IMG/VR virus record: IMGVR_UViG_2563366908_000002
Reading direction: 5' to 3' (one strand)
Source: a virus
Taxonomy: Duplodnaviria; Heunggongvirae; Uroviricota; Caudoviricetes
Length of the DNA stretch: 10,721 nt
Below the pieces are notes generated by a model. It was given only the letters and a program-made list of their open reading frames with translations. It was not told where the DNA came from and did no database searches. This document shows, in pieces, positions 1 to 4,709 of the stretch (position 1 is the stretch's first letter; every line of letters begins with the position of its first letter). Both the position numbers and the translations under genes were made by a program.

Positions 1-21
1 GCCTGCATCCTGAACCAGGAA

Positions 22-1530
22 TTATTCTTCGGACTGGTCGTCGGTGTGCTGCGGCTCCTGTCGTTTCGTTGCGGCACTGCTGCCTCCTTTATCACTGGCC
101 GGATCGGTATCAAATACCAGATCCAGCTTGCGGTTTTCATCAATTTCGGCCTTGCGCCGACGTTTGACATCATCCGGATTACGACCACCTGCACGTACCC
201 AGTCTGATTCTGTCGCCGCTCCACCACGAATCTGAATTTTCCAGGCCTCAGCCTCCTTAACAGGGTCAATCCACGGCATCACCGGTCCGGAATACACCGC
301 GGTATACAGTGAAGAACGATCAAGATCGCGGGGTAGCCTGATAACACCGGATGCCACAGCCTGTTTCAGCCAGGCACGATACATCGGGCGGGTGACGGCA
401 CCAATAAACCAGTCCTGCAGGATCAGGTAGCCATCAGTAGACTCAACCAGTTCCTGACGCTGGGCGCTGTAAGTGCCGTTATAGTTGCGTGCCGTACTGG
501 AAAAACTCAGACGACTGCCCGCCGCCACGGCACGCAACTGACCATTACGAAAAGTTTCAAGATTAGGATTGGGGCGATCCGACTTCACCATTCCAATTTC
601 TTCGCCGGGTTTCAGATCGTCGTAAATAATGCCTGGCTGAATGGTAAGCTCGCGTTCCTTATCCTTGCTGCCATTACCATCCGGTTCATAGCTCTGCCCG
701 TCGCCTTTCCGGATGTACATCCCCAGAGCAGCGGCGATCCTTGCTGCAGTCAGCTCAGAATCTTCATACTCTTTCAGGGCACTGAGGCGGATCAGCACAC
801 CGGACAACAAAGACGTCCCGCGCATCTGGTGCAGACGGCGAACAAATTTAAGATGCAGCATTCGCTCTGCATCCACTTCTTTGGTTTCCATCTGCCGTCC
901 GGATACGGGACGGCTTTTATACACCAGATATTTTTCGGGACGCCCCCAGTCATCAACAAACACGCCCTGATTCAGCCTGTTGCTCTCATCACTGGTCATG
1001 GGAATAAAGTCTGGCTCGAGCGCCTCCAGCCAGAAATGAACATCGGCAGAAGGCGTCAGGCTGTTTATGCGCCCGGAAACCATCTGGGCAAACACCTCAC
1101 CATCGCGCAGCCAGGTACGCAGCATCAGACGTTCCAGCATCGGACGGGTAAACTGCCCGGTGACTTCCGGACTGACAGACCATTCACTCCATCGGGTGCG
1201 TATCTCCGCTGCCAGATCACGGGCAATGGCCCCATTGCGTAATACCGGATGTGGCTCGACAATAATCCCGTTTTTCCCCACCACCCGTTCTTCCAGCTTG
1301 TCAAATACACCAATAACCAGATCGTGGTTGTTATCAAGGTAACGGGCCTGCTCACGTAACGACACGGCCCCGTACTGGCTTAACTGGTCGGCAGTTCGGT
1401 TTTCCCGCCGGGCTTTGTGTGTCCGTGTCGTTTTTACGGCCTCATAAGCCTGGATCACCGCACGGGAACGCAGCCTTGCCGCTTTCCATCCTGGTGAAAA
1501 AACGCCAATCACATCATCAATAATTGCCAT
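22..1530 (-). CDS. phage portal protein (lambda gpB-like by position and size)
   Basis: Track ORF 22..1602 begins at a GTG; the first ATG (1530..1528) overlaps the stop of the upstream W-like gene (TGATG). About 502 aa, last gene in a Nu1-A-W-B order as in lambda. Local motif resemblance to lambda gpB is recalled from memory, not aligned. Confidence 0.8.
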   Translation of the reverse strand: MAIIDDVIGVFSPGWKAARLRSRAVIQAYEAVKTTRTHKARRENRTADQLSQYGAVSLREQARYLDNNHDLVIGVFDKLEERVVGKNGIIVEPHPVLRNGAIARDLAAEIRTRWSEWSVSPEVTGQFTRPMLERLMLRTWLRDGEVFAQMVSGRINSLTPSADVHFWLEALEPDFIPMTSDESNRLNQGVFVDDWGRPEKYLVYKSRPVSGRQMETKEVDAERMLHLKFVRRLHQMRGTSLLSGVLIRLSALKEYEDSELTAARIAAALGMYIRKGDGQSYEPDGNGSKDKERELTIQPGIIYDDLKPGEEIGMVKSDRPNPNLETFRNGQLRAVAAGSRLSFSSTARNYNGTYSAQRQELVESTDGYLILQDWFIGAVTRPMYRAWLKQAVASGVIRLPRDLDRSSLYTAVYSGPVMPWIDPVKEAEAWKIQIRGGAATESDWVRAGGRNPDDVKRRRKAEIDENRKLDLVFDTDPASDKGGSSAATKRQEPQHTDDQSEE

Positions 1531-1742
1531 CAGAACCTCGCCAGCCGGTACCCGGGATGCCCCCGTCGTCGTGTAATCAGAGCCGCAAGGCGGCGCTCCC
1601 ACTCCTGCCGTCCCTGCCGGATCTCAGATAAGTTTTCCATGGTCATCTGCTGACCATTAAAGGTGACGGATTTTCCGTCCAGCACCGCCATTTCAGCTTC
1701 CGTATAACGCTGAATCATGGCTTCAATATCATTCTGATTCAT
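1530..1742 (-). CDS. gpW-like head-tail joining (head completion) protein
   Basis: About 70 aa ORF between large terminase and portal, the position and size of lambda W. GGAGG sits 6 nt upstream of the ATG at 1742 (third codon of track ORF 1530..1748), which overlaps the terminase stop (ATGA). C-terminal RRRG motif resembles lambda W. Confidence 0.7.
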   Translation of the reverse strand: MNQNDIEAMIQRYTEAEMAVLDGKSVTFNGQQMTMENLSEIRQGRQEWERRLAALITRRRGHPGYRLARF

Positions 1743-3841
1743 AACCATCCTCCGGAAGTCAGCCAGGGGTTAACATCGTCAGTTACTGTTTTCTTCCGTT
1801 TTTGTTTTTTAACAGGCGTGGATACCGGTTCCGGTGAGGGTGACGGTTCGGTACTGTCCGGGACACACTCCAGCCAGGTTTCCCGGCTCGCCCACTCCGG
1901 TGCATCCGGCCAGCGGATCTTTTCGTATCCATGCAGAATGACCAGAGCCTCGGCATACACCATCAGGTCAAAGGCTTCGTTGGCACCGCGACCCGGCTTA
2001 CTCCATTTCCCGTCACTGCTCCGCTCTTCATACGTCAGTTCGTCGTAAAACCAGCTCCCCAGCCAGTCAGGGAAATGCACATAGCCTGGACCTGGCGAGT
2101 CACGCCATAACGCGTTATTCACCCGGTCTTTCAGGGCATCCGTCTGAAGAAGCCAGAGCGGCACATCACCTGCGGCCTGCGCCCGTCGGCCCGTTCGTCC
2201 GGTGTTATCAGGGAATGTACGGGTGATCAGTTTTGCGCGCCGGATGCTGTCGCCCTTAAACAGGTAAATACGTTTACCAAGGCCATCACGACGGCAACGA
2301 CGCCAGAATTTATAGGCATTATCAGTGACCCCGTCTTCACCGCCGGAGTCCACCGCCATTGCCATCAGTCGCATTTGTTGAGAAGGATCGGAGGCCAGCG
2401 GCCAGCTTTTATGAAAAACATCCGTCAGCAGGACATCCCAGTCTTCCGGATAGCTGGCCGGATCAATTCGCTGGCTCTCCCCGTCGCTGTCACCGCGCAA
2501 TGACTGCGTGATATTGTAACGATCAATAATCCAGCGTTCGCCACGGCTGCCATAGCCTGTTACCTGAACCACAAAACGGCGATGACGTCCCGCCTGCACA
2601 TCCACTGTCGCCACAAGGAAATTAACGCCATCCGGCACACTGCGGGAAGGAACTGGCTCTGCCCGCTGCTCAAGCAGTTCACTTTTTCGTTGCTCCATGC
2701 TGGCGCGGGGAAGATAAGGTAATCCCCAGTCGGTATTGATAACCGTCTTGAGTGTCTCTTCACTTCCGGTTGTCTCGTATTCCTGTTCTGCAGTAAGCAG
2801 TTTGTAAACGAGTTGCGAGAGTGTCTGATAAGCAGCTGCCGGACCCTCCATCCAGAATGACGCAATACGTGAACGCCGGGGATCACCATAACGACTGCCA
2901 TCTGCATTGATGGATTCACCATCCCGTAACCAGACCCCACGTCCGTTCAGCTCGCGTTTTTGTTCAGGCAAAATCCGTCCTGAACAGGAAGGACACTGAA
3001 TATAAGCCGCCTCACTTGCCAGCACAGGATCGGCAATATCACGGAAACCAGCAACCACATCGCCGCAGGGCTGAAAATACTCACCACAGTGTGGACAGGG
3101 CCAGTACCAGCGACGGCGATCGCCACGGTTATAGAGCGACAGTATACCCGTGGTTGGTGGAGCCTCATGCGGTGAAGTCCGTCGCCATTTCACATCCTTC
3201 ACATCCCTGCCGGGGGAACTCTCCACCAGCGTCATACCACTGGACATAAATGTGGTGGTACGTTTTGAGGCAAGAGAGAAGGCATCCCCCTCACCATCAA
3301 TATCTTCCGGAAAACGGTCATAATCCGTCAGCGCCACGCATTTATAATCTGATGAAGACATGATATTGACTGACGGCCAGCCGATTTTCAGGTAGTTGCC
3401 AGCAAGGAATGTTCTGTCATAAACGTTGTTGTCATTTTTGTTCGGACTCAGGCGACTGACCACTTCCGGGCTGACGCGAAACGTTCTGGCGAGTCGTTTT
3501 TTGGAGTGTTCGCGGGCTTTTTCCTCCGTCATCTGAATGATCAGCATATCAGCAGGATCGCAAATCACGTTGTAAATCACCCAGCCGTCAATCAGGCCGA
3601 TAGTCTTGCCGGTTCGTGCCGGGCCAACAAATATCACTGCGTCGTATTCACGCGAGGCCAGGCAGTTCATAGGCTCAATAACATACGGTGCCACCAGCGG
3701 ATCCCACGGGACTGAGTTCCCTGCCCCCATAGGCACCCGCATATACTGAGCAACGGCATCAGCAACCCGCATTCGTCTCGGTGCGCGAAGGATATAACCT
3801 GAATCGGTTCGTGCTGCCTTTGCGGTTTCCTGATTCAGCAT
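1739..3841 (-). CDS. terminase large subunit (lambda gpA family)
   Basis: 700 aa ORF with Walker-A-like VGPARTGKT, a WPCPHCGEYF motif resembling lambda gpA ACPHCGEE, WIIDR resembling gpA WLIDR, and C-terminal NEAFDLMVYAEAL resembling gpA NEALDCFVYALAAL. ATG at 3841 overlaps the small-terminase stop (TAATG). Confidence 0.9.
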   Translation of the reverse strand: MLNQETAKAARTDSGYILRAPRRMRVADAVAQYMRVPMGAGNSVPWDPLVAPYVIEPMNCLASREYDAVIFVGPARTGKTIGLIDGWVIYNVICDPADMLIIQMTEEKAREHSKKRLARTFRVSPEVVSRLSPNKNDNNVYDRTFLAGNYLKIGWPSVNIMSSSDYKCVALTDYDRFPEDIDGEGDAFSLASKRTTTFMSSGMTLVESSPGRDVKDVKWRRTSPHEAPPTTGILSLYNRGDRRRWYWPCPHCGEYFQPCGDVVAGFRDIADPVLASEAAYIQCPSCSGRILPEQKRELNGRGVWLRDGESINADGSRYGDPRRSRIASFWMEGPAAAYQTLSQLVYKLLTAEQEYETTGSEETLKTVINTDWGLPYLPRASMEQRKSELLEQRAEPVPSRSVPDGVNFLVATVDVQAGRHRRFVVQVTGYGSRGERWIIDRYNITQSLRGDSDGESQRIDPASYPEDWDVLLTDVFHKSWPLASDPSQQMRLMAMAVDSGGEDGVTDNAYKFWRRCRRDGLGKRIYLFKGDSIRRAKLITRTFPDNTGRTGRRAQAAGDVPLWLLQTDALKDRVNNALWRDSPGPGYVHFPDWLGSWFYDELTYEERSSDGKWSKPGRGANEAFDLMVYAEALVILHGYEKIRWPDAPEWASRETWLECVPDSTEPSPSPEPVSTPVKKQKRKKTVTDDVNPWLTSGGWL

Positions 3842-4335
3842 TACTCCTCCTGCTGTAATTCCTCCTCATCATCCGCACCTGCTTCGGTCACCCGCAGGGC
3901 TATCTGATCGCGCAGATCATCAATAATGGACTGAACACGGCTCACAGCGGCAGGCTGCAGACCGCAGTCACGTTCCAGAATATCCGGTAATGTCTCCAGC
4001 ACCTGCACGACCGCTTTTGCCCAGATGGCAAACTCCCGTCTGACATCACTGGCCGGAATGAGTTGCGCCGTTTCCTGTTCGAACTTAAGACGCTCACGTT
4101 CAGACTGATACCAGGCTTTGCGCTCATGCGCGTCCATTTCGCCTTCTGCAACCGGCGGTGGTAATGCCAGAAATGCCGACACAATATCAACCACCCGATA
4201 AAGCTTGAGGTTGCTTTCATGCCCCCCTGCAACGGGTAGATTTTGCAGCCTTGCCGCAGCAGTCTGGCGATGTACACCTGACAGTGCCGCCAGTTGACTG
4301 ATATTCAGCGTCAGATTTTTTAACTCTCGATCCAT
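3841..4335 (-). CDS. terminase small subunit (Nu1-like DNA-packaging protein)
   Basis: 164 aa ORF immediately upstream of and coupled to the large terminase. N-terminal helix-turn-helix-like segment (LTLNISQLAALSGVHRQTAAARL) and acidic C-terminus. GGAG 5 nt upstream of the ATG at 4335. Lies about 175 bp from the putative cosN, as Nu1 does in lambda. Confidence 0.8.
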   Translation of the reverse strand: MDRELKNLTLNISQLAALSGVHRQTAAARLQNLPVAGGHESNLKLYRVVDIVSAFLALPPPVAEGEMDAHERKAWYQSERERLKFEQETAQLIPASDVRREFAIWAKAVVQVLETLPDILERDCGLQPAAVSRVQSIIDDLRDQIALRVTEAGADDEEELQQEE

Positions 4336-4509
4336 ACCCGCTCCAGAATGTTTTAAACATGCATCTTGCGAACAACTTTAGGCAAACGGTGTTAGTGATG
4401 AACAAAAAACAATCAGAATCGACACCATAAAAATAAATCCACTGTAATATCAATCAATTACAGTAGTGGTGATGACGAATAAAATTTCAAAAACTAGCCT
4501 TTTTCCGCG

Positions 4510-4521
4510 ACGCTCCCGCCC
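4510..4521 (-). other. putative cosN cohesive-end site
   Basis: Minus strand reads CCACG-GGGCGGGAGCGT-CGCGGAAAAAGG, against lambda TTACG-GGGCGGCGACCT-CGCGGGTTTTCG recalled from memory. Conserved flanks with a variant 12-mer core, at the expected distance upstream of the Nu1-like start. Confidence 0.5.
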
Positions 4522-4550
4522 CGTGGCAGGGGCCCCCACCGGGAGGACCC

Positions 4551-4573
4551 GACAGCCTGACAGCCTGACAGCC
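4551..4573. repeat. tandem 8-bp repeat GACAGCCT, about 3 copies, beside cosN on the side opposite the Nu1-like gene
   Basis: Direct reading: gacagcct gacagcct gacagcc. Confidence 0.8.
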
Positions 4574-4709
4574 GTGACGAGCATCTGATACAGCGCTTTA
4601 CATAATGGCATAGGAATAATTCAGAAGGACATCACAGCATGCCCACACAAATTAGTGTGAGTGTCCTGTTTCTTCCTACGCACAGGACTGACGAGCATGA
4701 GGGGAAAAT

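Follow-up and report, generated by a model that had tools for sequence, protein, structure and literature searches.

Positions 4390 to 4509 of the window (here the whole stretch of 10,721 nucleotides that was analysed) very probably form the cosB part of the cos site of an mEp460-like lambdoid E. coli prophage. We put the probability of this reading, which was obtained from sequence comparison, at about 85%. The comparison supports an equivalence with lambda cosB through the layout of the subsites, the position and strand of an IHF consensus match, the co-variation of the R-like repeats and the way in which these repeats track the wing of the small terminase (TerS). The lambda-type design is known; what is new is a different recognition sequence together with a different TerS family. 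The analysis shows how the elements are arranged, that this arrangement is conserved, that the repeats co-vary, and what fold and remote homology TerS has.

The interval 4336-4509 is non-coding and lies among late genes of the minus strand; all genes in this region of the window are on that strand, in late-gene direction. With a GC content of 35.6%, compared with 46.2% for the whole 10.7-kb window, it is indeed the AT-rich stretch that the initial annotation had described, and it is located as described there, between cosN (4510-4521) and the small-terminase gene, the ATG of which is at 4335. TerS (3841-4335, minus strand, 164 aa) belongs to Pfam DUF1441 and phrog_141 and has a predicted N-terminal winged helix-turn-helix domain. 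It is followed by the large terminase TerL (1739-3841, minus strand, 700 aa), a gpA-like protein with ATPase and endonuclease domains (Pfam GpA_ATPase, 1.6e-71; GpA_nuclease, 1.1e-85). Direct reading of the sequence shows a GGAG motif resembling a ribosome binding site at 4341-4344 (minus strand), 6-9 nt upstream of the TerS ATG, within the 56-bp leader that separates the R1-like site from the gene. A search for promoters in the interval gave three weak sigma-70-like matches, against 1.1+-1.1 expected, and was unconvincing.

The cohesive end GGGCGGGAGCGT is predicted as a 12-nt 5' overhang at 4510-4521 on the minus strand (bp 1-12 in the cos numbering used here). This placement was made because 4521/4522 of the window corresponds to base 1 in the record of phage cdtI and to the end of that of phage Tritos, because a cosQ-like heptamer aligns with that of lambda, and because of the CG dinucleotides that flank the end on both sides at the predicted nicks (4522-4523 and 4508-4509, minus strand), the GGGCGG of its left half and the CGCGG that follows it. 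On the gene strand the region thus reads ...CCACG, the cohesive end GGGCGGGAGCGT and then CGCGGAAAAAGG. The heptamer, GGGTCCT, lies at 4544-4550 (minus strand), 29 nt upstream of the predicted nick (30 nt in lambda); it occurs only once within the window and is conserved in the relatives. The pentamer CGCGG (4505-4509, bp 13-17, minus strand) is invariant among them. The cosQ heptamer, the CG flanks, the GGGCGG half and the CGCGG pentamer are all shared with the joined ends of lambda, and an alignment with the lambda cohesive end GGGCGGCGACCT shows differences at bp 7, 8, 9 and 11 only within the remaining half, which is the half reported as naturally variable (PMC4669245). With cosN placed at 4510-4521, the interval is therefore positionally equivalent to lambda I2 plus cosB. 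Directly upstream of cosQ in the late-gene direction, the window carries an 8-bp tandem repeat, GACAGCCT, in 3.4 copies (4551-4578); lambda and many relatives have a Fur-box-like palindrome, GATAATCATTATC, in its place.

The segment next to the pentamer, AAAAAGGCTAGTTTTTGAAATTTTAT (4479-4504, bp 18-43, minus strand), aligns with lambda bp 18-43 and contains conserved A5, T5 and A3T4 tracts. Conservation in the interval is highest in this I2-like segment, with a mean information of 1.16 bits across 33 dereplicated Enterobacterales loci, compared with 0.3-0.5 bits in the R sites. The I2 segment of lambda forms a static bend and is essential (PMC4856287). Positions bp 1-33 (4489-4521) are identical in the phages PhiR47_1 (L002), cdtI (L004) and HannyBb (L013), the TerS proteins of which have 86% and 42% identity to that of the window and the R sites of which differ. 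The identity of this stretch despite divergent TerS proteins and R sites suggests a mosaic joint between a cosN/I2 module and a cosB/TerS module near bp 33-40.

Beyond the I2-like segment, three R-like sites follow one another on the minus, plus and minus strand, i. e. with R2 inverted. The predicted R3-like site TCGTCATCACCACTA occupies 4464-4478 (bp 44-58, minus strand) and has its core, TCATCACC, at 4468-4475. The predicted R2-like site ATCGACACCA lies at 4418-4427 (about bp 93-107) on the plus strand, inverted relative to R3 and R1, with the core TCGACACC at 4419-4426; on the minus strand the motif reads GGTGTCGA. A T-run spacer, ATTGTTTTTTG (4404-4414, minus strand), which relatives keep as GTTTTTTGTTC or AAAAAGTGTTC, separates it from the predicted R1-like site GTTCATCACTAACA at 4390-4403 (about bp 119-130, minus strand), the core of which is TCATCACT at 4394-4401. 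The initial annotation had reported two direct copies of GTGATGA. Both exist, a few bases at most from the positions given, as GTGATGAA at 4396-4403 and GTGATGAC at 4470-4477 (bare heptamers at 4396-4402 and 4470-4476), with starts 74 bp apart; they belong to the R1-like and the R3-like site, respectively. The count was incomplete, however, as the third, inverted copy (TCGACACC, 4419-4426) had been missed. The degenerate motif TCRWCACY occurs five times on both strands of the whole window, three of these occurrences falling within 82 bp here; as the sites themselves served to derive the motif, this count is no more than descriptive. A direct repeat of at least 7 bp arises in 75% of dinucleotide shuffles of the 174-bp interval, and a repeat search reported no direct-repeat family. 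Since the statistics of the single sequence are at chance level, the significance of the repeats can come only from the relatives.

Between the R3-like and the R2-like site there is a match to the IHF consensus, corresponding to I1 of lambda: TATCAATCAATTA at 4448-4460 (bp 62-74, plus strand) conforms to WATCAANNNNTTR and is the one perfect match to it in the 10.7-kb window. This consensus match, a candidate IHF site, had not been among the features listed before. In bp 55-95 of 38 dereplicated loci, matches with at most one mismatch were found at the same place and on the same strand in 26, compared with 3.8+-1.7 after shuffling of the same segments, and nearly all of them begin at bp 61-64. 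Perfect matches were present in nine of the 38 loci, where 0.21 would be expected.

The comparison set comprised 14 phage and 66 genome loci encoding relatives of TerS, about 80 in total. When anchored at cosN, the upstream regions of the Enterobacterales loci align almost without gaps, and the same order of elements recurs: cosQ, cosN, A/T tracts, R3, IHF, inverted R2, R1, TerS. In related cos regions across the Enterobacterales, all three R-like sites recur with their positions kept. The distance of R3 from cosN is fixed (bp 44-58) in all anchored relatives, and at the position of R2 nearly all relatives from the Enterobacterales carry an equivalent, (A/G)TGTCGA(A/T).

While the positions are kept, the sequence of the repeats varies between lineages, and the three copies of any one genome are similar to each other. 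The window class has CATCACCAC as R3, GGTGTCGA as R2 and TTCATCAC as R1; in the mEp043 class the corresponding sites are CATCATCAT, GATGTCGAA and TTCACCATC, in Fels-1 CATCATCATCATG, AAGATGATGAT and TTCATCATCTT, and in Gifsy-2 GTCAGCACTGAA, CAGTGTCGAA and TTCGACACTGAA. Because ungapped per-column conservation past bp 44 is blurred by register shifts of 1-2 bp and by the class differences, a register-free statistic was used, i. e. the highest number of matching positions, out of 10, between two zones, compared for the same and for permuted genomes in the 38 dereplicated loci. R3 and R1 matched at 8.16 positions in the same genome and at 7.63 in other genomes; in these tests on related and linked sequences, the numbers of which overstate independence, none of 10000 permutations reached the observed value for R3 and R1, eight of 10000 did so for R3 and the reverse complement of R2, and one of 10000 for the reverse complement of R2 and R1. 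Controls with the wrong strand or with the spacer/IHF zone were not significant. We argue that these negative controls mitigate the problem of kinship, without removing it, and that the co-variation signal is real. That R2, R1 and the IHF consensus keep their positions and that the repeats co-vary is difficult to account for without selection.

The R sites also vary in step with TerS. The R3 class CATCACCAC is paired with the TerS wing GG(H/N)xxNL in 7 of 7 loci and the R3 class CATCATCAT with the wing GSNxK in 20 of 20 intact genes, counts to which the same reservation about linked relatives applies. Larger changes of the R sites are accompanied by changes of the recognition helix, from HRQT to NRNM or HRDT. 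In the CATCATCAT class (e. g. mEp043, L008, and the loci L033-L049), the R1-like site at bp 119-132 overlaps the start codon of TerS, as GTTCACCATCATG with the ATG at bp 130, and TerS bound there could influence how it is itself translated. The R1-like site of the window is situated 56 bp upstream of the ATG.

TerS had been labelled Nu1-like, which is correct for its fold and remote homology and incorrect for its Pfam family. The protein matches DUF1441 (2.7e-41) and did not match Phage_Nu1 (PF07471), even at E<=10 with the N-terminal 67 aa; BLASTP against lambda Nu1 found nothing, and phmmer against the PDB sequences gave no meaningful match. Among the PHROG families, however, TerS matched not only phrog_141 (7e-74) but also phrog_57, the family of lambda Nu1 (8.2e-10, residues 5-160), and reciprocally lambda Nu1 matched phrog_141 (5.6e-8, residues 2-150). 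Remote homology is therefore detectable over the full length. As the full-length model gave only weak and mixed matches in Foldseek, the isolated N-terminal domain was needed for structural comparison. The AlphaFold model of residues 1-64 (pLDDT 86.5) has the order beta-alpha-alpha-wing-alpha of a MerR-like winged helix-turn-helix domain. Its top Foldseek chains were 7lw0, 7lxs and 7lwr (probability 0.99). The titles of their entries refer to structural studies of viral DNA-packaging motors, and we take the chains to be terminase DNA-binding domains. These were followed by 6hn7_B (0.99), a chain of a TerS-Rpp complex from an entry on PICI 'hijacking'. The gpNu1 domain 1j9i was retrieved with a probability of 0.90 (TM 0.55, rmsd 2.7 A, 27% identity), and MerR-type domains (BldC, RacA, MtaN) were found as well; for such a small domain the E-values were weak (0.03-0.2). 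Profile comparison and model together indicate that TerS is a remote homologue of gpNu1 with the same winged-helix DNA-binding fold.

The published layout of lambda is R3-I1-R2-R1 with R2 inverted and I2 between cosN and R3 (PMC9026076, PMC4669245, PMC4856287). The window has the same order and orientation of subsites, including the inverted R2 (PMC9026076), an IHF consensus between R3 and R2, an A/T-tract segment between cosN and R3, the cosQ GGGTCCT about 30 bp upstream, a 12-nt end that starts with GGGCGG and has CG flanks, and the location of the cos site immediately upstream of TerS and a gpA-like TerL. Spacing and sequence differ. R3 is at bp 50-65 in lambda, so that the R3-like site of the window is about 6 bp closer to cosN; the centres of R3 and R2 are about 50 bp apart in the window and about 60 bp in lambda, and R2 and R1 about 24 bp and about 41 bp, respectively. 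The repeats were said to differ from those of lambda, and this is the case: the lambda R cores are CGTTTCC, and the window cores TCATCAC(C/T) / TCGACACC do not match them (this comparison of cores was made against lambda only). Finally, lambda TerS belongs to Phage_Nu1, in contrast to the DUF1441 protein of the window.

From sequence, the Feiss laboratory inferred tripartite R sites, each specificity group with R sequences of its own, together with an IHF site for 21, phi80, Monarch and Gifsy-1 (PMC4669245, PMC9026076). Phages 21, phi80 and Monarch are treated as having a lambda-like TerS (PMC4669245, PMC9026076), as is N15 (PMC4669245). Gifsy-1, the published example from outside E. coli, was checked for a TerS of the DUF1441 type and does not have one; its TerS is of the Nu1 type like that of lambda and unlike that of the window. 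Members of DUF1441 / phrog_141 are found in mEp460, mEp043/213, VT1-Sakai, Gifsy-2, Fels-1 and cdtI. For this group we found no description of cosB subsites in the literature, and an earlier description may exist. Reportedly, the subject of Vahanian et al. 2017 is the cosN of lambda-like phages. For mEp213/LLS a cosN is mentioned only as 'putative' (PMC12315714), and for the cyanophage Cr-LKS3, which encodes a member of the TerS family, 5' cohesive ends with lambda-like flanks have been reported (PMC9303873).

All steps of binding, bending and cutting are inferred from lambda. By this analogy, a TerS dimer would bind R3 and the inverted R2 with its winged helix-turn-helix domains (PMC9026076). 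IHF would bend the DNA sharply, in a U-turn, between R3 and R2 and thereby bring both sites face to face, and the A/T tracts could contribute a static bend. Bound in this way, TerS would anchor the gpA-like TerL on cosN, about 45 bp away, for the staggered nicks; R1 would have an accessory role.

A simpler cosB is conceivable, in which only the R3-like site (4464-4478) is functional, as in N15, and the R2, R1 and IHF elements are dispensable or relics. In lambda R3 is critical and R1 accessory, and N15, the single R3 of which lies at bp 48-60 and thus at a similar distance from cosN, works on R3 alone (PMC9026076, PMC4669245). Moreover, R2 of the window matches R3 at only 6 of 8 core positions. 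The Pasteurellaceae relatives (L052-L067) have a single R3-like site, GGCATCATCATCTT, at bp 45 from cosN, and in these loci no R2- or R1-like copy was found within 700 bp, so that R2, R1 and the IHF site may be non-essential. On the other hand, the window differs from N15 in having three R-like sites plus an IHF consensus, and across the Enterobacterales R2, R1 and the IHF consensus keep their positions, with the repeats co-varying with R3. We therefore consider the simple, R3-only arrangement unlikely.

The inverted repeat of the interval allows a different reading again. Its 8-bp arms, ACTGTAAT (4441-4448) and ATTACAGT (4457-4464), are present as the initial annotation had stated; they are 8 nt apart and surround the IHF core, so that the consensus match lies in the loop and the right arm. 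On the gene strand, 4439-4466 has the appearance of a terminator, with a stem of 10 pairs followed by ATTTATTTTT, and an RNA hairpin or intrinsic terminator at this place might modulate late transcription into the terminase genes. The fold has -11.5 kcal/mol (z -3.7), and the version in phi458 has -16.7 kcal/mol. However, the repeat, present in the window, phi458, L015 and L017, has been lost from 569R4 and L016, two loci whose TerS is the same as that of the window, and the other classes lack it; as a conserved element of cosB it thus does not hold up. Hairpins with arms of at least 8 bp arise in 6% of dinucleotide shuffles of the 174 bp, which is not significant by itself, no compensatory changes were seen in the hairpin among the relatives, and a search for RNA elements gave no Rfam family at E<=1. 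The hairpin bases also carry the conserved IHF consensus. Lambdoid late transcription, furthermore, is Q-antiterminated and reads through terminators. We regard a role as RNA element or terminator as very improbable; because the inverted repeat is not conserved, its terminator-like look is probably incidental, and it happens to frame the IHF site. That the repeats arose by chance in an AT-rich spacer, or that the interval codes for small proteins (minus-strand ORFs 4217-4453 and 4450-4611), is barely credible. The chance-level repeat statistics of the single sequence would fit the former, and the latter finds some backing in related phage records, where 'hypothetical protein' CDSs have been annotated across cosN/cosB (L001, 1672-1797; L002, 1525-1767; L013, 384-616). 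Chance does not account for the conservation of position, the enrichment of the IHF consensus and the co-variation of the repeats. As for coding, close relatives carry stops or frameshifts in each of the two ORFs, neither of which has a Pfam match and one of which spans the cos cleavage site. Since their frames are interrupted in close relatives, the annotated CDSs are probably over-predictions.

Returning to the three-site cosB, the sequence data support the proposal of the initial annotation that this terminase has a distinct specificity. Only three lambda-like packaging specificities have been tested experimentally, those of lambda, 21 and N15 (PMC4669245). Because the R-site sequence of the window differs from that of lambda and is taken to differ from those of 21 and N15, its terminase should select only DNA with its own type of cosB. 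A wider interpretation, towards which we lean slightly, is that the DUF1441/phrog_141 TerS proteins represent a second large branch of lambda-type packaging, in which five or more classes of R sites co-vary with the wing and the recognition helix. The candidate classes are TCATCACCAC (window), CATCATCAT, CAGCACTGA (Gifsy-2), GTGCAGCAGCA and GGCGGCGGCA (cdtI). If this is true, there would be several packaging specificities beyond lambda, 21 and N15, and the cosB/TerS pair of the window would be one of them. The module of cosQ, cosN and I2 would then be exchangeable, because bp 1-33 are identical in the window, PhiR47_1 and cdtI, and the classes would bear on the question which co-resident prophages of E. 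coli package each other's DNA.

The specificity of the terminase decides which DNA is encapsidated and thus matters for the cross-packaging of co-resident prophages, for hijacking by chromosomal islands and for transduction. With the map of subsites, the specificity of a very common cos type of E. coli prophages becomes directly testable, and the R-site classes together with the TerS wing motifs constitute a data set on how the winged-helix domain of terminases reads DNA. The architecture itself is what one would expect of a lambda-like phage, an addition to a known system that overturns nothing.

The locus is widespread. The interval is matched, wholly or in parts, by 36 phage records and the TerS protein by 58, including mEp460, phi458, Ayreon, mEp043/213, VT1-Sakai, Stx2 phages, Gifsy-2, Fels-1 and cdtI. 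A single genome scan yielded the 66 loci with TerS relatives, which come from Enterobacterales, Pasteurellaceae, Marinobacter and others. DNA of the cos region (4336-4560 of the window) is present in 2113 of 5426 complete E. coli genomes, at up to seven places per genome, and no RefSeq feature is annotated under it in these genomes; E. coli strain 118UI has a 100% match. A TerS 100% identical to that of the window, next to a nearly identical cos, was also found in two metagenome-assembled genomes labelled 'Bacillota bacterium' (L015, JAEWTL010000010.1) and 'Proteobacteria bacterium' (L016, JAGTSE010000010.1), the contigs of which are probably mis-binned Escherichia prophage sequence.
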